DNA of 64,000 bases, from the NCBI GenBank assembly GCA_963698715.1, contig CAVORW010000004.1, positions 697,550-761,549 on the forward strand, in the 5' to 3' direction. Shown here one piece after another: positions 13,012 through 61,910 of the stretch; position 1 is the stretch's first letter; each line of letters starts with the position of its first letter. The notes under the pieces are model-generated. The model worked only from the letters and a program-made list of their open reading frames with translations. It was not told the DNA's origin and did not search any database. This stretch comes from an uncultured Chloroflexia bacterium. Lineage in GTDB: Bacteria > Chloroflexota > Anaerolineae > Anaerolineales > UBA4823. Position numbers and translations under genes: made by a program.

Positions 13012-14070
13012 ATGTCAGAACTCCAACCTTTCCTAAAAACCCTTATCTCAGCGCCTGGTCTCTCGGGCCATGAGGCCCCAATTCGCAAACTAATCGAAGC
13101 TGAATGGCAGCCATTATGCGACCAGATCAATGTCAGCCGCCTGGGCAGTTTGCAAGCATTAAGATTGGGTACAGAAGATGAACCCCGCAACAGCCTGCTT
13201 TTAGCTGCCCACATGGATGCGATTGGCATGATGGTCACAGGCATCACCGATGGTTTTCTTCGCGCGACCCAAATTGGTGGGATTGACCCGCGTGTCTTAC
13301 CAGGACAAATCGTTACCGTGCATGGACACCAAGACCTGCCTGGCATGATTGTTCAACCCCCACCCCACCAGATGCCTGCAGAATATGCAAACTCCCCAGT
13401 ACCGCTGAACCATTTATTGATTGATGTCGGATTGAACCCCCGCCAGGTAACGCGGCTGGTTCGAGTTGGGAATCTTGTCTCGTTCGCTCAACCGCCTCTG
13501 GATTTGAGCAGCGATATCCTGGTCGGCCATTCACTGGATAACCGCGCTTCTGTAGCGGCGGTCACTTTCTGCCTGGAATCGCTTCAAAAGCGTACGTTGG
13601 CCTGGGATGTATGGGCGGTAGCCACTACCCAAGAAGAAGAAACCCTTGGCGGAGCGGCAACTTCCGCATTTGGACTGCGACCGACACTGGCTGTAGCCAT
13701 CGATATGACCTTTGGCGCCAGCCCCGGTAGCCCTGGGCATAAAACTTTTCCGATTGGTAAAGGGATTACTCTAGGATGGGGTCCTAACATCCATCCGGCC
13801 CTGTTTAAGGTTTTCAAAGAGCTTGCCGAACGCCTCGAAATCCCATACAAGATGGAGGTCATGCCGCGCAATTCAGGGACAGATGCCATTGCAATGCAGG
13901 TCGCAGCTGAAGGCGTCCCAACGATGGTGATCAGTATTCCACTGCGCTACATGCACACCCCGGTTGAAATGGTCTCTTTGAAAGATATTCAGCGCGCAGG
14001 CCGTTTGCTGGCTGAATTTGCGGCCAACCTGGATGCTACTTTCATGGAAAAGCTCATCTGGGATGCCTGA
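13012..14070 (+). CDS. M42 family metallo-aminopeptidase (paralog 1)
   Basis: APGLSGHE...LLAAHMDAIGMMV...TTQEEETLGGA...; typical size for the family. Confidence 0.85.
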   Translation: MSELQPFLKTLISAPGLSGHEAPIRKLIEAEWQPLCDQINVSRLGSLQALRLGTEDEPRNSLLLAAHMDAIGMMVTGITDGFLRATQIGGIDPRVLPGQIVTVHGHQDLPGMIVQPPPHQMPAEYANSPVPLNHLLIDVGLNPRQVTRLVRVGNLVSFAQPPLDLSSDILVGHSLDNRASVAAVTFCLESLQKRTLAWDVWAVATTQEEETLGGAATSAFGLRPTLAVAIDMTFGASPGSPGHKTFPIGKGITLGWGPNIHPALFKVFKELAERLEIPYKMEVMPRNSGTDAIAMQVAAEGVPTMVISIPLRYMHTPVEMVSLKDIQRAGRLLAEFAANLDATFMEKLIWDA

Positions 14071-15332: not shown

Positions 15333-16343
15333 ATGAAAAACCTAATCCAAAAGCTGGTTGAGACCGCAGGCCCCTCGGGATTTGAGACCAAGATTCGGAA
15401 AGTAATTCGGGAAGAAATCGAGCCATTCTGTGACGAAATTCGAGTTGATCAGCTTGGTAACCTGATAGCAGCTAAAGGCAGTCCTACCCCAGGATCAAAG
15501 AGGATTATGCTGGCGGCCCACATGGATGAGATTGGGCTCATGGCTACCCATATCGATGAAGCTGGTTATATCCGATTTTTACCCATCGGTGGAGTTTCAC
15601 CTTTAACTTGCCTGGGAGGCCGGGTCAAATTCCTGAATGGCGCAGCAGGCGTAATCGGTGCTGAGCGCCTTGATCCTGGTAAAACGCCCTCCATGAGCCA
15701 GCTCTTTATTGATATAGGCTGTTCTTCGCGAGAAAACTCCCAGGTAAGCGTTGGAGATGTGGCAGTTTTTGAACGTCCTTTCAGCAGCTTGGGACAGCGC
15801 CTGGTAGCCAAAGCCATGGATGATCGGATCAGTGTTGCAATTTTGATCGAAACACTGCGACAGATTTCCGAAACCAAAGGCGAACTGGCTCATCAAGTAT
15901 ATTTTGTCTTTTCCGTTCAGGAAGAAGTTGGTACCCGCGGAGCCACAACTGCTGCCTTTGGAATAGAGCCCGACCTGGGATTAGCCGTAGATGTGACCTC
16001 TACTGGTGACACACCCAAAGGGCTAAAAATGGAAGTCCGCCTGGGGCGTGGGCCAGCAATCAAAGTGCGCGACCAGGGAAATTTATCCGACCCAAGAGTG
16101 GTAGCTTGGATGGTAAAAACGGCCGAGAAAGCCCGAATACCCTATCAGATGGAAGTATTAGAGCGTGGCGGCACAGATGCCCGTGCTATCCAGCTCTCAC
16201 GGGCTGGCGTCCCAGCTGGCTGTCTCTCAATTCCATGCCGCTACATTCATACACCTTCCGAGATGGTGGATCTCCGAGATGTAGAAAATGCGGTTAAACT
16301 CTTGGTTGCGCTGCTCAGCCAACCAATCGAATTGGGTGAATAG
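15333..16343 (+). CDS. M42 family metallo-aminopeptidase (paralog 3)
   Basis: ETAGPSGFE, LAAHMDEIGLMA, FSVQEEVGTRGA. AGGAG RBS. Confidence 0.9.
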   Translation: MKNLIQKLVETAGPSGFETKIRKVIREEIEPFCDEIRVDQLGNLIAAKGSPTPGSKRIMLAAHMDEIGLMATHIDEAGYIRFLPIGGVSPLTCLGGRVKFLNGAAGVIGAERLDPGKTPSMSQLFIDIGCSSRENSQVSVGDVAVFERPFSSLGQRLVAKAMDDRISVAILIETLRQISETKGELAHQVYFVFSVQEEVGTRGATTAAFGIEPDLGLAVDVTSTGDTPKGLKMEVRLGRGPAIKVRDQGNLSDPRVVAWMVKTAEKARIPYQMEVLERGGTDARAIQLSRAGVPAGCLSIPCRYIHTPSEMVDLRDVENAVKLLVALLSQPIELGE

Positions 16344-16378
16344 TGACTGATTCGCCTGGCCGGAAGGTACTTTTATCT

Positions 16379-17725
16379 ATGAAATATCCAAGTCTGATCA
16401 TTGGGTTGCTGCTCATCCTGCTGTCAGCCTGTTCAAGCCTACCGCCGCCGTTCGGCACGCAGGAACAGATCGTGTCAACACCCATCACAACCACTCCCGG
16501 TGGTTCTCCCGCTGCTCCGACGCCAACTGTAATAGAAGGTACGGCTCCAGTTGAAACAGCCCCTGCGGAGGAAAACACGCCGGGTTCTGGCACCTCTCCC
16601 AGCCCAATTGTACTGCTTTTGTGGTTACCCCCAGAATTTGACCCTGAAGCGGGTACGCCAGCCGCCGAACTATTCCGAGCCCGGTTGGAAGAATTTTCGC
16701 GCCGCCGGCCGGGAATCCGCACCGAAGTACGCATAAAAGCCCTTGAAGGCCCCGGAGGCTTGCTGGACTCTCTTACCACGGCCAGCGCAGCAGCGCCAGT
16801 GGCCCTACCCGATCTGGTTGCCTTGCCGCGCCCGATGCTCGAAACTGCTGCCCTAAAAGGCTTACTGCATCCATTCGACGGGCTTACCAATGCCCTGGAG
16901 AATCCCGATTGGTTTGACTTCGCCCGTCAGCTGGCTCATTTGCAAAACAGCACATTTGGTCTGCCGATCGCAGGGGATGCGCAGGTTCTGGTGTACCGGC
17001 CAGCTGTAATCGGCACACCACCCCCAGACTGGACAACCACGCTGACGATGGAAACCCCGCTGGCGTTTTCCGCTTCCGATCCCCAAAGCATCTTTACACT
17101 GGGTTTGTATCAATCCATCGATGGGGCACTGTTTGACGAGCAGGGCCGTCCAACACTGGAGAACGATCCCCTCACTAGAGTATTGGAGTTTTATCATCAG
17201 GCAGAACAGAATGGCGTGATGCCGTATTGGATTACACAATATCAGACTGACGAGCAAGCCTGGCAGGCGTTTGAGAGCGGAGAAACGGACCTGGTCATAT
17301 CCTGGTCATCACGCTATCTGTCCAGCAGGCTGGCAGACACAGCCATCGCCCCTCTGCCTACTGAGAATGGCGAACCATACACCCTGGCAAATGGCTGGGT
17401 TTGGGCGCTTTCTACCCCGCATGCCGACCGTCAGAGTCTGGGGGCTGAGTTGGCCGAATACTTGACAGATAGTATATTTTTAGCCCAATGGAGCCAGGCC
17501 GCTGGAACTATTCCCCCACAACCAAGTGCCATGCGCGCCTGGGCCGATACTTCGCTGCAAGCGTTGGTTAACCGGGTTGCCATCTCGGCGCGCATCATCC
17601 CATCCACCGACTTGATTACCAGTCTGGGTCCACCTGTGCAGCAAGCTGTCGTAGCAGTTCTAAAAGAACAAAGTGACCCTCAAGTGGCTTCTCAGGCAGC
17701 CATCGAAAGTGTAGCCAACCCGTAA
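16379..17725 (+). CDS. ABC-type extracellular solute-binding lipoprotein (family 1, sugar-type)
   Basis: MKYPSLIIGLLLILLSACSS lipobox, Pro/Thr linker, SBP_bac_1-like body. Confidence 0.75.
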   Translation: MKYPSLIIGLLLILLSACSSLPPPFGTQEQIVSTPITTTPGGSPAAPTPTVIEGTAPVETAPAEENTPGSGTSPSPIVLLLWLPPEFDPEAGTPAAELFRARLEEFSRRRPGIRTEVRIKALEGPGGLLDSLTTASAAAPVALPDLVALPRPMLETAALKGLLHPFDGLTNALENPDWFDFARQLAHLQNSTFGLPIAGDAQVLVYRPAVIGTPPPDWTTTLTMETPLAFSASDPQSIFTLGLYQSIDGALFDEQGRPTLENDPLTRVLEFYHQAEQNGVMPYWITQYQTDEQAWQAFESGETDLVISWSSRYLSSRLADTAIAPLPTENGEPYTLANGWVWALSTPHADRQSLGAELAEYLTDSIFLAQWSQAAGTIPPQPSAMRAWADTSLQALVNRVAISARIIPSTDLITSLGPPVQQAVVAVLKEQSDPQVASQAAIESVANP

Positions 17726-17751
17726 ACTTGCTTGCTCCCCTTTGCAGATGT

Positions 17752-17946
17752 TAGGGTAATCGCATTTGAAATATTCACAATCGTTTTTGCCCATTCTAAC
17801 CGGGACTTGGCACTAACTTAGGTCATAGAAGCTTCTTCGGGGCGATAATTTGCTATCCCGGAGTGTTCCCAGAGCCTGCCGAAGGGCCTTCAATGCACAA
17901 AAATGGGTCTTCGGTCGAGCCAAAAAATCCTAATGCGATTACCCTA
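17752..17946. mobile_element. MITE-like non-autonomous element: 195 bp, 15-bp perfect TIR, flanked by a 10-bp direct repeat
   Basis: TAGGGTAATCGCATT (17752..17766) and AATGCGATTACCCTA (17932..17946). TTGCAGATGT occurs immediately outside both ends (17742..17751 and 17947..17956). No ORF; the interior looks less GC-rich than its surroundings by eye. Confidence 0.6.
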
Positions 17947-17959
17947 TTGCAGATGTAAG

Positions 17960-17988
17960 TTGACGAATTAGGGTGGCGATGTTATGAT
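17960..17988 (+). promoter_or_regulatory. Putative promoter of the LysM/M23 gene
   Basis: TTGACG (17960..17965), 17 nt, TATGAT (17983..17988). Confidence 0.5.
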
Positions 17989-18009
17989 GCGCCCGGAGAT
18001 ACTTTAAGA

Positions 18010-19257
18010 ATGCCTAAAACTGACTTTCTCAACGACTTTCCTGTTGAAGAGAGTGCCTCTACTCAGAAGAAAGCCCCGGATCAGCTCACAAGCCCAGTGA
18101 TTAACTCTCCCGAGTCAAACCCTGGTGAGAGAGCCCGGTTTCTGGTTATATGGGAACAGCTCTCTCAGGCTGGTTTAGCAGAAATCACTGTCCGCCTGGG
18201 TACCAATATCCTGCTGATTGCTCTAATATTAATCGTGGCCTGGGGGATGCGCGAACTATACACTCGCGCTCAAGTGCTGCAACCTGCCCAAGAAGCAGTT
18301 CTGGCAGCTGAGATGACAGCCCCTTCACCGACTGAAATCGCGCCAATATTGCCAGAATTCAAATTTGACCTGGTTCCTGTCAGGGGAGTGACACGTTTAG
18401 CGCGCCTGCACACAGATGTTCCTTCTCTACAGAGGCTTGAGGTAGCAAAATATACGGTCAAATCAGGGGATACTCTATTTGGCATCGCCGAGAAGTTTGG
18501 CCTGAAACCTGAAACAATCCTATGGGGTAACCAGTTTGTTTTAGGTGATAATCCCCATAATTTACAGCCAGGCCAGGAGTTAAATATTTTGCCCATCAAT
18601 GGAACTTATCATAAATGGTCAGCCGGAGATGGTTTGAACGGTGTCGCAAAATTCTTCGGTGTTGACCCAGAAGAAATCATCAACTTCTCTGGCAACCACC
18701 TGAATCCCGATACGATTGGCGATTGGTCACAACCGAATATTGAACCAGGTACCTGGCTGGTAATTCCGGGAGGCACCCGCGAGTTTGTCAGTTGGAGCGC
18801 GCCGGAAATCCCGCGCGATAATCCCACAGTTGCCAGCGTACTAGGGCCGGGCGCCTGCAGTTCGGTTGCAGATGGAGCCATCGGCATTGGCGCTTTCATC
18901 TGGCCAGCAAACAGGCATTATCTCTCCGGTTTCGACTACAACCCCAGCGCCAACCATCGCGGAATCGATATCGATGGTGAAACCGGCGATCCAGTTTACG
19001 CAGCCGATAATGGCGTTGTGGTTTATGCCGGCTGGAATAATTGGGGCTACGGCAATGTGGTCGTCATTAACCATGGCAATAGCTGGCAGACGCTCTATGC
19101 TCACCTGAGTGCCTTAACTGTCGGATGCGGGCAATCTGTGTTCCAGGGCTCTATGGTCGGGGCAATCGGCAGCACGGGCAATTCTACGGGCTCGCACCTG
19201 CATTACGAGATGATGTACGCGGGTGGGAAGGTTAATCCCTGGGATTATCTGCCCTGA
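18010..19257 (+). CDS. LysM domain plus M23 family peptidoglycan metalloendopeptidase
   Basis: LysM YTVKSGDTLFGIAEKFGL. M23 HRGIDIDGETGDPVYAADNG...GSTGNSTGSHLHYEM. N-terminal TM. Confidence 0.9.
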   Translation: MPKTDFLNDFPVEESASTQKKAPDQLTSPVINSPESNPGERARFLVIWEQLSQAGLAEITVRLGTNILLIALILIVAWGMRELYTRAQVLQPAQEAVLAAEMTAPSPTEIAPILPEFKFDLVPVRGVTRLARLHTDVPSLQRLEVAKYTVKSGDTLFGIAEKFGLKPETILWGNQFVLGDNPHNLQPGQELNILPINGTYHKWSAGDGLNGVAKFFGVDPEEIINFSGNHLNPDTIGDWSQPNIEPGTWLVIPGGTREFVSWSAPEIPRDNPTVASVLGPGACSSVADGAIGIGAFIWPANRHYLSGFDYNPSANHRGIDIDGETGDPVYAADNGVVVYAGWNNWGYGNVVVINHGNSWQTLYAHLSALTVGCGQSVFQGSMVGAIGSTGNSTGSHLHYEMMYAGGKVNPWDYLP

Positions 19258-19282: not shown

Positions 19283-19326
19283 AAAAAGGTGCGATTGCCG
19301 GCATACACCGACAATCGCACCTTTTT
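19283..19326. terminator. Bidirectional intrinsic terminator between convergent genes
   Basis: AAAAAGGTGCGATTG, 14-nt loop, CAATCGCACCTTTTT. Confidence 0.7.
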
Positions 19327-20785: not shown

Positions 20786-23191
20786 CTATTCGCCCAGGCC
20801 TTCCAGGGTCAGGCCAGCCAGTTCAACCATTTGGCGGACGACGTCGTATTCTTCGTCTATGGCAGGGTTAATGCCTGTCCAGCCATAGAAATCCTGGCTG
20901 CCGATTGAAGCGTTCCAGGCGTCGGTTTGCGCGAACGCAACCAGCGCGGCGGAGATTTGCTCGCGCAAATCAGCCGGGAATTCCGGTCCGAAGGACAGCG
21001 TGTCATTCGGGATCTCAGGCGAGATCGTCAGGATGCGAACTTTCTGGACAATGTCAGGAGCTTCCTGTCGCAGGCCTGCTCGAGCATCCAGAACACGCCA
21101 GCCGTCACACATCAGTCGGCTGCCGTCATCATTGGGCGCGCACGATGGGATCAGGTCGGCCGGGATTTCGGGATCATCGCCAACAGCCCAGGCGGGCTCG
21201 CCTTCAGGCTTAAGCGGCGGGGAGAAGAAAACACTGCCGAAATCGGCTTCGCCATTATAGATCGCACGGACAACGCCGGTATGGCCACCGGCTTCCAGCG
21301 TCTCGCCAGCCGAAATGCCGGCCTCAGCCAGCATCGGCAGGATGGCCAAGTAGCCGGAGGTTGACCCTGGATCAGGGTAAGCCCATTTCAAACCATCCAG
21401 GTCGGCCAGGGTTTTGGCCTCGCTGTCAGAGGGCACTATGATCTGCGCCCAGTAAACGTCCCAACCGAAGCGCACAGCCTTGAAAGCCACATCCACGCCA
21501 CATAGCTGGTTAGCCAGGACATAACCCAGGCCAGGGATGAAGCCCATCGTATCGGTGGGCGAGGCGCACATCTCTTCGATGGTGGCAGCGTAGGAGGTCG
21601 GGACACTGACCTCGAACTCCAGGCCGGTGGCCTCTTTGAGGGCAGCAGCCATGACTTCACCACCGGTAGTGATCACCTGCGAATCAACCGATGGGACGAA
21701 GAGCACCTTGATCGGGTTTTCGGTAGTACCGATCGGGACAGCCGTAGGCGCAGGCGGCTCAGTCGGTACAGGGGTGGGCAGCGGCGAGGTCATTTGCTCA
21801 GATAGAATATCATCCGATTCAACATCCAGGGCAGCCAGGGTGCTGGCGACATCATCGCCATTGGCAATGGCAGCCATCGCTTCACCAACTTTGACGCGCA
21901 CAAAGTCGTATCCAGGCACAGGCGGCTCATAGTAGCCGTACTTCAGCATGTCAAAGGCAGTCTTGTAAGCAGGGTCGGATGCGAAGTAATCTGCCAGACC
22001 ATTTGCTACGCTCTCACGCACCGGGAAGTATTGGGAGACTTCCGCCCAGCGAGCCTGAACATCAGGGTCGGTATAGTATTTGAGGAACAGCCAGGAAGCC
22101 AGTTCGGCTTCGGGCGTGCTGACAGGCATGCTGACGCTGGCGCCGTAAATATTCATGACAGGTTCTGCAGTGGTATGCGGGATAGCTGCCACGCTCCACT
22201 CAAAGTTAGCGCCACCCGCCTCAACGGCGGAGCGGTAAAAGGGCAAGCCAGAGCTGGAGCCAACTGCAAAGAGCAGCTTGCCGGTTCCGAAGTCAGTCTG
22301 GTCCCCATAGCTTTCGGTCACGATGCTGGCGCAGCCATCATTGAACATGCCTTGCAGGAAGGTCATGGCGGCGACGGCGGCATCACTATCGTAGGTATAT
22401 TCACTGGTGTTGTAATCGAAAATATCGCCGCCAAAAGCAAACGTGAAGCTGGCAAAACGGGAAGCATCAACACTTAATTCATACCCAATGCTGCCTTCTA
22501 CAACTGCTCCTGAGAAGGGCTGCTCTGCGGCTTTGCAAGCCATTTCCTTAAACTCTTCGGGGGTGGTTGGGGGTCCGTCATAGCCGAGCTCAGCCAGCCA
22601 GTCGGCATTGTAATACAGCACTTCCATAGAGCGGTTGGGGGGCCATCCAAGGCGAGCGTTGCCGTAGGTGGGGAATACGTCCTGAGTGAAAAAGCCCGGG
22701 AAGAAATCGGCTTGATCTGCTTCGCTCAGCCCCCATTTGGGGCTGTTCACCATGCTGGTCATATCCACCAGGCCATCAACTAGCTGATATGTTGCCGCCT
22801 GGTTCTGGTAAGCAACCACCAGGTGTGGGGCATCCGGCGTATTCAGCACACCCAACATTTTGTTGAAGATGTCACTGTATCCACCCTGATATTCAGCTAC
22901 GACCGTGATACCATATTCGTTGCTGGCATTGAAGTCGGCAACAATTTCTTGAAGGGCTGTCTCACGATCACGCGTGTGCTGGTGCCAGAAAATGACTGTC
23001 TGCCCGGAAGGATCAACGTCTGCCCAGGGATCAGTCGGCGCAGCCGGAGCTTCAGTTTCTTGAGCCGCCGGCGCTTCTGGCGGTGTCGTGGCTTCAGCGG
23101 GCGGTTCCGGCGTAGCCGGGGCGCAGGCCGACAGTACCATTGCTAAAGTCATCAGTAGTGCAAATATGGTAGACCAAGTTTTTTTATTCAT
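20786..23191 (-). CDS. 801-aa lipoprotein fusing a family-1 (sugar-type) SBP with a PhnD-like (phosphonate-type) SBP domain
   Basis: MNKKTWSTIFALLMTLAMVLSACAP lipobox. The N-terminal half is paralogous to 25793..27247. A Pro/Thr linker (PLPTPVPTEPPAPTAVP) follows. The C-terminal half, IKVLFVPSVDSQ...LDGLKWAYPDPGSTSGYL...GEADFGSV, is PhnD-like. Confidence 0.8.
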   Translation of the reverse strand: MNKKTWSTIFALLMTLAMVLSACAPATPEPPAEATTPPEAPAAQETEAPAAPTDPWADVDPSGQTVIFWHQHTRDRETALQEIVADFNASNEYGITVVAEYQGGYSDIFNKMLGVLNTPDAPHLVVAYQNQAATYQLVDGLVDMTSMVNSPKWGLSEADQADFFPGFFTQDVFPTYGNARLGWPPNRSMEVLYYNADWLAELGYDGPPTTPEEFKEMACKAAEQPFSGAVVEGSIGYELSVDASRFASFTFAFGGDIFDYNTSEYTYDSDAAVAAMTFLQGMFNDGCASIVTESYGDQTDFGTGKLLFAVGSSSGLPFYRSAVEAGGANFEWSVAAIPHTTAEPVMNIYGASVSMPVSTPEAELASWLFLKYYTDPDVQARWAEVSQYFPVRESVANGLADYFASDPAYKTAFDMLKYGYYEPPVPGYDFVRVKVGEAMAAIANGDDVASTLAALDVESDDILSEQMTSPLPTPVPTEPPAPTAVPIGTTENPIKVLFVPSVDSQVITTGGEVMAAALKEATGLEFEVSVPTSYAATIEEMCASPTDTMGFIPGLGYVLANQLCGVDVAFKAVRFGWDVYWAQIIVPSDSEAKTLADLDGLKWAYPDPGSTSGYLAILPMLAEAGISAGETLEAGGHTGVVRAIYNGEADFGSVFFSPPLKPEGEPAWAVGDDPEIPADLIPSCAPNDDGSRLMCDGWRVLDARAGLRQEAPDIVQKVRILTISPEIPNDTLSFGPEFPADLREQISAALVAFAQTDAWNASIGSQDFYGWTGINPAIDEEYDVVRQMVELAGLTLEGLGE

Positions 23192-29074: not shown

Positions 29075-29689
29075 CTACCCCGCAGCCTCATCCAAGGCGG
29101 AAACTGCAGCCAAAAATCGCCAGGGTTTACTTTTCCATGGTTCAGGCACATTGTATAACCCCACTCTAGGGCCAGTAGTAACGCTGACATTAGAAATTGG
29201 TCGGCCGGCTTCTACCCAAAGTTTGCTGGTTGGCTCGCAGATATCTACACCATTAAACAATTTGTCGATCCCCAAGGCCTGGCAGATTTTCCCCGGACCA
29301 TCAGTCCAACGTCGGGCAGGTTGGGAACTGCGCCGGGCAGCAATTAATCCCAAGCCTTCCACCGGCAGAATGGAGCGAATCAAAACAGCGGCAGGATAGT
29401 CTTCTCGTTCAACTACAAAATTGAGCATCCAATGCATACCATAAGTAAAGTAGACATAGGCATGGCCAGGCGGTCCATACATCACCTGGGTACGTGCCGT
29501 ACGCCCGGCCTTACAATGGCAACCCAGATCATCTTCACCCCGGTAAGCTTCTGTTTCAATAATGATGCCGGCAATTCGTTGTTCCTGGTCGTAGCGTACC
29601 AGCCGCATACCCAGGAGTTCACGCGCCACTTGCAGCGCTGAGCGGTCGTAGAAATCACGCAGCAGAATCAAATTTTCATTCACTTTCAT
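29075..29689 (-). CDS. mpg: DNA-3-methyladenine glycosylase (Mpg/AAG family)
   Basis: FYDRSALQVARELLG..IIIETEAYRGEDDLGCH...GPPGHAYVYFTYGMHWMLN. Confidence 0.85.
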   Translation of the reverse strand: MKVNENLILLRDFYDRSALQVARELLGMRLVRYDQEQRIAGIIIETEAYRGEDDLGCHCKAGRTARTQVMYGPPGHAYVYFTYGMHWMLNFVVEREDYPAAVLIRSILPVEGLGLIAARRSSQPARRWTDGPGKICQALGIDKLFNGVDICEPTSKLWVEAGRPISNVSVTTGPRVGLYNVPEPWKSKPWRFLAAVSALDEAAG

Positions 29690-34301: not shown

Positions 34302-34434
34302 TTAGTGGTTCTTTCGCTAAATTCTTTGCAAACATAAGAAGGATATGTGGTGTTCGGTTTGGGCGGCTGCACCGCCCAAACCGAACACCACATTTCTCTT
34401 TTTTCTTATGTGACTTGCCGAAAAGACCATTTAG
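34302..34434 (-). repeat. Bipartite intergenic cassette, copy B, with nested palindrome
   Basis: Minus strand CTAAATGGTCTTTTCGGCAAGTCACATAAGAAAAAAGAG, then the hairpin, then CTTATGTTTGCAAAGAATTTAGCGAAAGAACCACTAA. It ends 16 nt before the purA ATG. Confidence 0.8.
34345..34393. repeat. REP-like palindrome: perfect 22-bp stem, 5-nt loop
   Basis: ATGTGGTGTTCGGTTTGGGCGG CTGCA CCGCCCAAACCGAACACCACAT. Confidence 0.85.
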
Positions 34435-34561: not shown

Positions 34562-35518
34562 TTAAGAACGCTGGATCGGCCTGGTCGGCGGTTCTCGGCG
34601 GTAGCGCGGATCGCGCTCTATCGTCAGGCGCAGCCCCTCCTCAAGTGAAAAACGAGGCTGGTAACCCAGTTTATCACGAGCCAGGCTGAGATCTGCGCAC
34701 ATCCGTGACACGCCTGGTGAAGTACGTGGATTGTTAATCACTTCTATTTTTGCTCCAGTCACAGCCGTGACCATCCTGACAAGACCCCGGATGCTGGTCT
34801 CTTGCCCGCTGCCGATATTAATGACCATCTGGTTAATTCCAGGCGCCGTAGCAGCGGCTATCAAGGCAGTGACCACGTCATCCACATATACATAATCGCG
34901 GGTTTGATTACCATCTCCGTGCATAACCAGGGTCCCCCCGCGCATCGCCTGGCGTAAAAAATTTGGAATTACCGGTGGATGCGAGGGTGGCAAATGCTGT
35001 CCGGGGCCATAGGCATTAAACACGCGCAGGCTTACGCTCTCAATCCCCCACAGATCACCGATGGTGCGCACATAATATTCAGCTGCCAGCTTAGAGACGG
35101 CATAAGGAGAACGCGGGTTAGGAAAGGCTGTTTCTTTGAGAGGCTGAGTTCCCTGATCCCCATACACTGCCCCCGACGAGACAAATACAACTCGGTGAAC
35201 GCCGACATCGCGCATGGCTTCCATCAGGCTAACTGTTCCGCCGACATTGGTAGCGTTATACTCGCGCGGGTAAAGCACTGATTCGGGCACAGCCACTCGC
35301 GCCGCCAGATGATAGACGCAATCCACTTCTTGCAGCAAAGTCCACAACTTGGGACGATCATTGACATCGCCCCGAGTAAAGAGGATATCCGGAGAAAGCG
35401 ATTGCGGATTGCCTGCCGAGAGATCATCCAGTCCCCGGACCTGATGGCCTTCTCGAACCAGATAATTTGCCAGATTCGAACCGATAAATCCGGCCGCACC
35501 AGTGATTAAAAAATTCAT
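34562..35518 (-). CDS. NAD-dependent epimerase/dehydratase (UDP-sugar 4-epimerase-like SDR)
   Basis: ITGAAGFIGSNL Rossmann motif, YAVSK catalytic motif. Confidence 0.85.
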   Translation of the reverse strand: MNFLITGAAGFIGSNLANYLVREGHQVRGLDDLSAGNPQSLSPDILFTRGDVNDRPKLWTLLQEVDCVYHLAARVAVPESVLYPREYNATNVGGTVSLMEAMRDVGVHRVVFVSSGAVYGDQGTQPLKETAFPNPRSPYAVSKLAAEYYVRTIGDLWGIESVSLRVFNAYGPGQHLPPSHPPVIPNFLRQAMRGGTLVMHGDGNQTRDYVYVDDVVTALIAAATAPGINQMVINIGSGQETSIRGLVRMVTAVTGAKIEVINNPRTSPGVSRMCADLSLARDKLGYQPRFSLEEGLRLTIERDPRYRREPPTRPIQRS

Positions 35519-35703
35519 TCAGTGCCTTTTTGTATCCTCTCAGTATTAGGGGGTAAGTTGTTTGTGGCCATCCTGATCCCTAAAATTTCAGGATATAGCC
35601 CAAACCTTCAGTAAATTGATTATAGCACGTTGGCTGATCAGCTAATCCCGTGAGTGTATTTCAACTTGGGGTAGTTACAGCATAAGCCCCTATATGGATG
35701 AAT

Positions 35704-35756
35704 GATTGGGTGTTATTGGCAGCGCATGGCAGTGTCAATAACACCCAATCCTTTTT
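35704..35756 (+). repeat. 15-bp inverted repeat with 17-nt loop plus T-tract; a diverged relative of the GGGTGTTA-type palindromes
   Basis: GATTGGGTGTTATTG (35704..35718) and CAATAACACCCAATC (35736..35750), then CTTTTT. It lies 75 nt upstream of the 35830 gene with no upstream plus-strand gene to terminate. Confidence 0.55.
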
Positions 35757-35829
35757 CCACCAGGATTGAAATGCACCTTCAGAAAGATAATAAGCCTTAG
35801 GCTCTTCCTGGCATGGTAAAATCCCAGCG

Positions 35830-41347: not shown

Positions 41348-41402
41348 ACAATATTTCTCCGTCTTATAAATAATTTAAAAGCTACACAGTTCCAGGGAAA
41401 TT

Positions 41403-41447
41403 TGGTGAGTTTGGGCGGGCGCTGCCCGCCCAAACTCACCAAATCCT
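41403..41447. repeat. REP-like palindrome: perfect 21-bp stem, 3-nt loop, inside the csp 5'UTR
   Basis: ATTTGGTGAGTTTGGGCGGGC GCT GCCCGCCCAAACTCACCAAAT. Confidence 0.85.
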
Positions 41448-41498
41448 ACTCTAACTGCGGATGTCCCCGAGGTACTGAGGTGCTTAACTAAAAATCAA

Positions 41499-41824: not shown

Positions 41825-42868
41825 TTATTTGCCCAGCCGCAGGCGCAGGGTTTCCGTCAGGTGGGGCAGGATTTCATGCAGATCTCCCACCACACCAAAC
41901 CGGGCCAGTTTAAAGATCGGAGCGTCTGGATCTTTATTGACAGCCACAATGGTTTTACTGGAACGCATTCCTGCCAGGTGTTGAATTGCGCCGGATATAC
42001 CAGCAGCAATATACAAATCGGGTGAAACAACTTTCCCCGTTTGGCCGACCTGGTGCGCATAAGGAATATAGCCGGCGTCCACTGCGGCTCGACTGGCGCC
42101 AACCGCCCCACCTAAGACTTGTGCCAGGCCGCTGACCAGTTGAAAACCCTGCCGGGCTTTCCAGATCTCAGCTTCTTTTTCGTCCATCCCGGCAGGCGGG
42201 GTAAGGGAAGGATTATTGGCTACTCCGCGCCCACCCGACACGATCACCGCAGCTTCAGTCAGGCTAACGCCGCCATCAGCCGGCACATAGCCTTCAACCT
42301 GGCTTTTTACGAGGCCGTCTATGCCGGAGGTATCCATTCGGATTGGGGTGCCGCTGCGAGCAACATCTTTTTCAGGAGCCGCAAATGCTCTCACTCGCAG
42401 GGTGATGATCTGCGGGCGCGTTTCGCAGCGTGCTTTAGAAAGTAGTTTGCCGGCATACACCGGGCGAGTAACTACGACTGTATCGCCATCCATCTCCAGA
42501 GCAATGGCTTCCGGCATGACGCCTGTTGACAAGTCAATCGCCGCCATCGCCGCCAGTTCTCGGCCGCGGCTGGTGGTCGGAAATAGCAGGACTTGCGGCT
42601 GGCTTTCCTTGGCCTGCCTGGACAACACGGATGAAAAGGGTTCCGGGCGATAATCCGCCAGACCGGGATCATCACCCACCAGGACTTCATCAGCCCCGGC
42701 CTGATAAGCTTCCTGGACCAGCTGTTCGAGACCCTGTCCGAGGATTACTGCCGTCACGCCTTCTCCCAGGGAGGTGAACAATTCTTTGGCCGCTCCAATT
42801 CCTTCCCAGGAAACTGGTAGGGCTTTGCCTTCAAAATGATCGATGTAAACCCATATTTTGTTGCTCAT
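41825..42868 (-). CDS. etfA: Electron transfer flavoprotein alpha subunit
   Basis: C-terminal FAD-binding region PDLYIAAGISGAIQHLAGM. The ATG at 42868 overlaps the etfB stop (ATGA); a GTG at 42871 is also possible. Confidence 0.9.
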   Translation of the reverse strand: MSNKIWVYIDHFEGKALPVSWEGIGAAKELFTSLGEGVTAVILGQGLEQLVQEAYQAGADEVLVGDDPGLADYRPEPFSSVLSRQAKESQPQVLLFPTTSRGRELAAMAAIDLSTGVMPEAIALEMDGDTVVVTRPVYAGKLLSKARCETRPQIITLRVRAFAAPEKDVARSGTPIRMDTSGIDGLVKSQVEGYVPADGGVSLTEAAVIVSGGRGVANNPSLTPPAGMDEKEAEIWKARQGFQLVSGLAQVLGGAVGASRAAVDAGYIPYAHQVGQTGKVVSPDLYIAAGISGAIQHLAGMRSSKTIVAVNKDPDAPIFKLARFGVVGDLHEILPHLTETLRLRLGK

Positions 42869-54514: not shown

Positions 54515-54667
54515 GCCAAACCTTTTTGATGTAAACCTGGGGTCATAGAAATAAACCAGCTCAATTATAGCACATATGTTTTATTATTAAGATTAATGCT
54601 TCCATCTCGCGTAAGGCTTTCCCAAATTCGAAAATCTTGGAAATTTCCACCTAGAAAATGAGTTGCT

Positions 54668-54706
54668 GGGTGTGAGAAAAACGGCAGAGCCGTTTTTCTC
54701 ACACCC
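54668..54706. repeat. Perfect 18-bp palindrome with 3-nt loop in a large AT-rich spacer
   Basis: GGGTGTGAGAAAAACGGC AGA GCCGTTTTTCTCACACCC. Confidence 0.8.
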
Positions 54707-55003
54707 AAATAGCATTCTTGAAAGAGCCTTGCCATCTCGAGCAACCTTAACCTGGTGTCCGGGACTCTCCCAAATAGAATACATACACAAACTGTTATTA
54801 TACCAATACGAAACCGCTCTAGTTTAAAAAATAATTAATATGGGTTAGCACGCCAATAAACGCTTGTTTGCTATTATCCCATCTGGTAGCCAGTTATCAT
54901 CTATAATCATAAGTGTCAGGCAGTTTAAGGCATCGAAACAAAAAAATACAATCCAAGGGCTCAACAACCTGATACCGGAGCTAGCGAAAGGACGGAAACA
55001 GCC

Positions 55004-61864: not shown

Positions 61865-61910
61865 GGGTGTTAGGTTGGATGCGGGGAACGCCGCATCCAA
61901 CCTAACACCC
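61865..61910. repeat. REP-like palindrome: perfect 20-bp stem, 6-nt loop, downstream of htpG
   Basis: GGGTGTTAGGTTGGATGCGG GGAACG CCGCATCCAACCTAACACCC. No U-tract on either side. Confidence 0.85.

Follow-up and report, generated by a model that had tools for sequence, protein, structure and literature searches.

Elements of the ISAs1 family are bounded by inverted repeats of 14-22 bp that start with CAGGG and are flanked by a direct repeat of 10 bp (PMC11946415). In ISArsp11 the inverted repeat is CAGGGCTGATGCAAAGTCG and the direct repeat is GGAACAGCAC (PMC6305408, Table 3), and the lengths of ISArsp11 and ISAsp2 are 1306 bp and 1627 bp respectively (PMC6305408, PMC3542288). Type I MITEs are short elements with the same terminal inverted repeats (TIRs) as an IS, whose transposase is thought to mobilise them (PMC3542288), and multi-copy status is part of the usual operational definition of a MITE (PMC2779907). 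Within the literature examined few or no MITEs have been described for the ISAs1 family, and no paper was found that ties a MITE to it. The window, by which is meant the whole stretch of 64,000 nucleotides that was analysed, holds a 195-bp element that is best explained as a type I (non-autonomous) MITE that stems from an ISAs1-family IS, with a probability of about 0.93. The element lies between the gene of an extracellular solute-binding protein (SBP) and that of a LysM/M23 peptidase, and its plus strand is that on which the transposase gene lies in the full-length IS. The features of the locus are as follows.

16343-17725, plus strand: extracellular solute-binding protein gene, upstream, ending 26 bp before the element; the orthologues in the relatives L001-L005 carry PF01547/PF13416.
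17742-17751, no strand: left target-site duplication TTGCAGATGT, identical to 17947-17956 and abutting the left inverted repeat.
17752-17946, plus strand: probable non-autonomous ISAs1-family element (MITE), 195 bp, with ends as in 1.2-kb ISAs1 elements, non-coding and missing from syntenic relatives.
17752-17774, plus strand: left end, consisting of the 15-bp TIR TAGGGTAATCGCATT and 8 further bases, identical to the transposase-proximal IS end TAGGGTAATCGCATTTGAAATAT.
17767-17931, no strand: interior filler of 165 bp, a singleton cluster unrelated to the IS interior and to other short elements.
17921-17946, minus strand: right end with the 15-bp TIR (17932-17946), its subterminal bases like those of a 143-bp MITE subfamily.
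17947-17956, no strand: right target-site duplication TTGCAGATGT, identical to the left copy.
17960-17988, plus strand: sigma-70-like promoter TTGACG-17-TATGAT of the LysM/M23 gene, intact and beginning 3 bp past the right duplication copy.
18010-19257, plus strand: LysM and M23 peptidase gene, downstream (PF01476, PF01551).

The two inverted repeats are perfect over 15 bp, with 17752-17766 the exact reverse complement of 17932-17946, and the direct repeat abuts the element at both ends. Given that the bases beside each copy of TTGCAGATGT differ, the direct repeat is exactly 10 bp. The perfect 15-bp TIRs, the length of 195 bp and the 10-bp flanking duplication had been reported in the first-pass annotation and can all be read directly from the sequence. 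A repeat search of the window extends the ends, as an imperfect inverted repeat, to 24 nt at 83%. No other inverted repeat found there has its arms separated by 100-400 bp; most are tight hairpins, and four weaker pairs are more than 1 kb apart. Near-matches to the end occur at 13759, 19424 and 21373, with 3 mismatches each, and none pairs into an element; that at 21373 is conserved coding sequence in relatives. The element is single-copy within the 64 kb and no ORF of at least 40 aa lies inside it, both as first annotated, and the sole such ORF to touch it is a 44-aa minus-strand ORF that overlaps its left edge. The interior had also been called AT-richer than its surroundings, and this holds against the window as a whole (46% GC for the element, 53% for the window) but the start of the neighbouring gene is also low in GC (48%), and the composition is therefore only partly distinctive for the element.

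Other hairpins occur elsewhere in the window. That at 19283-19326, with a 19-bp stem between runs of A and T, separates the convergent M23 and phosphodiesterase-like genes and looks like an ordinary bidirectional terminator. Two long intergenic hairpins (34331-34407 and 41387-41457) have a common arm motif, GGTG..TTTGGGCGG / CCGCCCAAAC, and the tight hairpins at 35695-35759, 54667-54707 and 61865-61910 start with GGGTGT-like arms; those with GGTG- or GGGTGT-like arms may all belong to one small family, of palindromic terminators or of REP-like elements.

The origin of the element is indicated by its ends. A total of 185,579 species-representative genomes were scanned for both ends at a spacing of 150-180 bp, and metagenome contigs were scanned for a single end (TAGGGTAATCGCATTNGRAW), which gave 102 loci. 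Both 15-bp ends of the window element recur, identical, in 22 transposase-carrying elements with lengths of 1111-1216 bp from public metagenomes and assemblies (20 of 1111-1212 bp from the metagenome scan, plus L128 and L131 on long contigs). Each of the 20 matches one transposase ORF by tblastn. The profile test was run on the copy at L026:622-1794, whose transposase ORF matches NCBIfam NF033564, 'ISAs1 family transposase', with 432 bits against a cutoff of 70, as well as PF13808 and PF01609, and the remaining long elements were assigned by tblastn to the L026 transposase, to which the transposases in elements with the TAGGGTAATCGCATT end are 54-100% identical. The full-length transposases are ~45-50% identical to named cyanobacterial ISAs1 elements. 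An IS4-like source had been suggested earlier as an example, and this is not borne out, since the transposase-carrying elements with these ends are of ISAs1 type and a partner of IS4 type was not seen. At base level, the left end of the window element is identical at 23 of 23 positions to L026, L123, L108, L046, L040 and others, which is the IS left end, and the right subterminal bases agree at 25 of 26 positions with L071, the end of the 143-bp MITE subfamily. Across 18 aligned ends there is no variation in AGGG, AA and GCAT. Both ends of the window element begin with T, and the left end of L006, several partner ends and ISAsp2 from Anabaena sp. 90 begin with C; the ISAsp2 ends (CAGGGGAAACGCATCTAA) match those of the window element at 13 of 18 positions.

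Among the full-length copies, perfect duplications of 10 bp are present at L040, L101 and L108, and the duplication is 10 bp at L131 and 8 bp at L128. No target duplication was seen at L025, L026, L029, L032, L046, L048, L051, L058, L059, L074, L112, L116, L123 and L125. The copies that lack a duplication sit mostly on short metagenome contigs, while L128 and L131, on long contigs, have one; it is likely that the former are assembly joins across a multi-copy repeat, and recombination between copies is possible. Relatives of the transposase are highly abundant in metagenomes, mostly on contigs of ~1.2-2 kb, which is the expectation for a multi-copy repeat. Two deletion derivatives, L099 (809 bp) and L089 (1111 bp), retain parts of the transposase. 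In L026 (601-680) the longest transposase ORF begins 22 nt inside the left end, and gene callers start the protein at Met14 (378 aa). A start so near the left end leaves almost no room for an internal promoter, and the IS transposase may need either the terminal repeat region or read-through for its expression.

The same ends are borne by 42 further gene-less elements of 132-283 bp, or 43 with that of the window. Both flanks are readable in 42 of the short elements (window included), of which 20, at 17 distinct sites, are flanked by perfect duplications of 10 bp; of the remaining duplications six agree at 9/10 positions and four at 8/10, and several others are of 9 bp. Clustering by interior divides the 43 into 10 groups (one of 32, two pairs and six singletons), and the window element is one of the singletons. 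A MITE of 150-152 bp with the ends TAGGGTAATCGCATT and TAGGGC(T)ATCGCATT has at least 15 copies in the WBZO01 assembly (L028, L034, L042, L047, L055, L057, L065, L069, L075, L080, L082, L085, L096, L113 and L114), many of them with perfect 10-bp duplications, and this MITE is part of a 32-member superfamily of 132-153 bp. The window element is like that superfamily (WBZO01/WBZL01/WBZR01/WBZY01 and several JGI contigs) in the same 15-mer on one end and in the 10-bp duplication, and unlike it in its interior and length, which are unrelated; furthermore, the second end in the superfamily is usually TAGGGC(T/A)ATCGCATT, whereas the two ends in the window are identical. Beside a MITE copy at L070:7703-7883, three end-like 15-mers lie in tandem at 14-bp steps (7841, 7855 and 7869, minus strand). 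Two of the short elements were the yield of the scan of species-representative genomes and come from labelled MAGs: L006 (labelled Bermanella) holds a 203-bp element and L007 (labelled Desulfocicer) a 186-bp element flanked by GTCGCGGTAA/GTCGCGGCAA, and the interior of each is unlike that in the window. For the 165-bp interior of the window element no homolog was found in 131 loci, in plasmids or in phages, nor in any part of the IS. The blastn search of the element against plasmids and phages returned chance matches only (~21-44 bp, E>=0.6), the scan of viral contigs with the 15-mer gave 16 single matches and none with an inverted partner, which are read as chance, and a full-text literature search for the end sequence returned one unrelated amphioxus paper only.

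Comparison with the ISAs1 family, as represented by ISAs1 of Aeromonas salmonicida, ISAsp2 and Arthrobacter ISArsp11, indicates agreement in the inverted repeat, which at 15 bp falls within the range of 14-22 bp and matches the CAGGG start at 4 of 5 bases, as (C/T)AGGG, and in the target duplication, which is 10 bp in the window, about 10 bp in the family and 8 to 10 bp across the retrieved members. In addition, elements with identical ends encode the NF033564 transposase. The window element differs from the family in that it is transposase-less, in that it is 195 bp long against 1.2-1.6 kb, and in its first base, which is T and not C; the matching full-length elements (1206-1216 bp) are themselves near the short end of the ISAs1-family sizes seen here. 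With the type I bacterial MITEs it shares small size (195 bp, below ~600 bp), an intergenic position and the absence of any transposase coding sequence (tblastn blank), along with repeats identical to those of an autonomous IS and a duplication of the length made by that IS. Presence and absence also agree, as the element is missing from five of five syntenic loci, the closest of which is at 86% protein identity. Unlike the usual definition, which includes multi-copy status, the window variant is present as one copy in 64 kb and its interior is unique among the 43.

The syntenic loci define the state of the site in relatives. No record identical to the window M23 protein was found; its best public relatives are 86% and 84% identical to it, and on this protein the host is placed among Anaerolineales-like Chloroflexota. 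Five Anaerolineales-like loci (L001-L005) hold the same gene pair, with M23 proteins 68-86% identical to that of the window, and on alignment none of them has the element. The SBP-M23 spacer is 70-148 bp in these relatives and 284 bp in the window, of which 79 bp are left without the element and one copy of the duplication. Among these five loci, of which the closest has 86% protein identity, none shows the exact empty site, in which TTGCAGATGT would occur once and the sequence would read CCCCTTTGCAGATGTAAGTTGACG. All five relatives retain the promoter form TTGACG-17-TATNAT, with no change in TTGACG and ATGTTATNAT, but upstream of the -35 almost nothing is conserved among them. The promoter-like site of the window, TTGACG-17-TATGAT with a TG preceding its -10, was located correctly in the first-pass annotation, as was the right end of the element 13 bp upstream of it. 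The accompanying suggestion, that the insertion may have displaced upstream regulatory DNA, is unsupported, given that nothing upstream of the -35 is conserved and the promoter is intact. With the promoter invariant and the upstream DNA barely conserved, the element sits in an unconstrained spacer, and because the native promoter is untouched the insertion is probably neutral for the M23 gene. A promoter scan found no outward or hybrid promoter from the element, the native promoter being the only one.

The spacer varies among the relatives also. In the closest relatives, L001 (~2630-2720) and L002 (~1-95), a different extra segment occupies the same SBP-M23 spacer and includes a perfect 12-bp stem, TTTGTGTGGGGC...GCCCCACACAAA. 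Given that this segment differs from that of the window and that the filler in L003 differs again, the spacer is a hotspot of variation.

If the element is a type I MITE, its transposase would come from elsewhere. No ISAs1 transposase was found in the window by tblastn with the L026 transposase, and a weak 36-aa tblastn match at 42233-42340 was rejected as spurious, since it lies antisense inside an ETF-alpha-like gene. A full-length ISAs1 element of 1212 bp with both ends perfect is present at L123:540-1751 (Ga0315912_10026099), where it adjoins an epimerase 77% identical to that at 34565-35518 of the window and a glycosylase 60% identical to that at 29078-29689, and the adjacency of the glycosylase to FabI matches too. 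The resemblance of these neighbours to window genes indicates that the autonomous element occurs in a relative of the window's organism. We infer that the 195-bp element was mobilised in trans by a full-length copy that is, or formerly was, present in the genome of the window. In such a scheme, a full-length copy elsewhere in the cell would supply the ISAs1-type DDE transposase, which would bind both 15-bp TIRs of the element; the element would then enter the DNA that separates the solute-binding-protein gene from the LysM/M23 promoter, and repair of the staggered target cut would leave the 10-bp duplication. The perfect repeat pair and the perfect duplication suggest that the insertion was recent, and a recent insertion would imply that an ISAs1 transposase was active in the Anaerolineales-like lineage.

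The same segment could also have arisen where it now stands, if a full-length ISAs1 element of 1.2 kb had inserted and its interior had later been deleted or replaced, in which case it would never have moved as a miniature. Such a history would fit the occurrence of the window element as a singleton in all sampled sequence, the existence of IS deletion derivatives (L099 and L089) and the identity of the left 23 bp to the IS left end. However, this is unlikely, given that the right subterminal region resembles another MITE subfamily and not the IS right end and that the perfect state of both repeats and of the duplication speaks for one recent event. In addition, the interior is unlike any part of the IS, so that a simple internal deletion does not account for the element and was rejected as its origin.

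A reading that places the function of the segment in RNA, which had been offered as the alternative in the first-pass annotation, would make it a structured cis-regulatory RNA or leader, or else a small RNA, with a 15-bp closing helix, its target being the M23 gene or read-through from the gene upstream. The 215-nt stretch does fold better than its shuffles on the plus strand (z = -3.5), and two CUUCGG motifs occur on that strand. Without the TIRs, however, the interior folds like its shuffles (z = 0.05 on the plus strand and +1.3 on the minus strand), which indicates that the folding signal is the terminal inverted repeat helix alone, and a search of Rfam with 17000-18700 (E<=10) gave no match for the element, with just two chance snoRNA hits. 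Furthermore, none of the five syntenic relatives has the segment, its position is upstream of the conserved promoter and outside the leader, and identical terminal repeats bound transposase genes elsewhere, all of which makes an RNA element very improbable. Slighter still is the probability that an inverted and a direct repeat came together by chance in an intergenic spacer, for which there is nothing but the single copy in the window. On a rough estimate, the probability of finding somewhere in 64 kb a perfect inverted repeat of 15-mers separated by 100-400 bp is ~0.02, and it falls to ~2e-8 when the abutting 10-bp direct repeat is included (x 4^-10), and the same 15-mer pair recurs at transposase genes and in 42 other short elements. 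A MITE with a target-site duplication, which was the original proposal for this segment, is therefore upheld: its ends bound transposase elements of ~1.2 kb and dozens of short elements, and syntenic relatives lack the segment.

For annotation, this means masking the 195 bp as mobile DNA; no riboswitch, leader or regulatory region belonging to the M23/LysM hydrolase gene should be read into it. The element is ordinary bacterial mobile DNA and leaves the current understanding of such elements unchanged. These 15-bp ends enclose at least 10 unrelated interiors, the transposases of elements with this end share as little as 54% identity with one another, and the hosts of these ends include the Chloroflexota window and MAGs labelled Gammaproteobacteria and Desulfobacterota, though the cross-phylum spread is provisional as MAG labels can be wrong. 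This raises the possibility, to be entertained only tentatively, that the ISAs1 subgroup of ~1.2 kb with the end TAGGGTAATCGCATT is an unusually prolific, broad-host source of MITEs and that the window element is the first of an undescribed ISAs1-derived lineage. A bolder version of this reading would have expression of the M23 hydrolase gene altered by the unique interior, 13 bp from the -35. What the ISAs1 family gains is a clear set of MITEs linked to it, whose defined end sequence, duplication of 10 bp and candidate transposases can be tested jointly.
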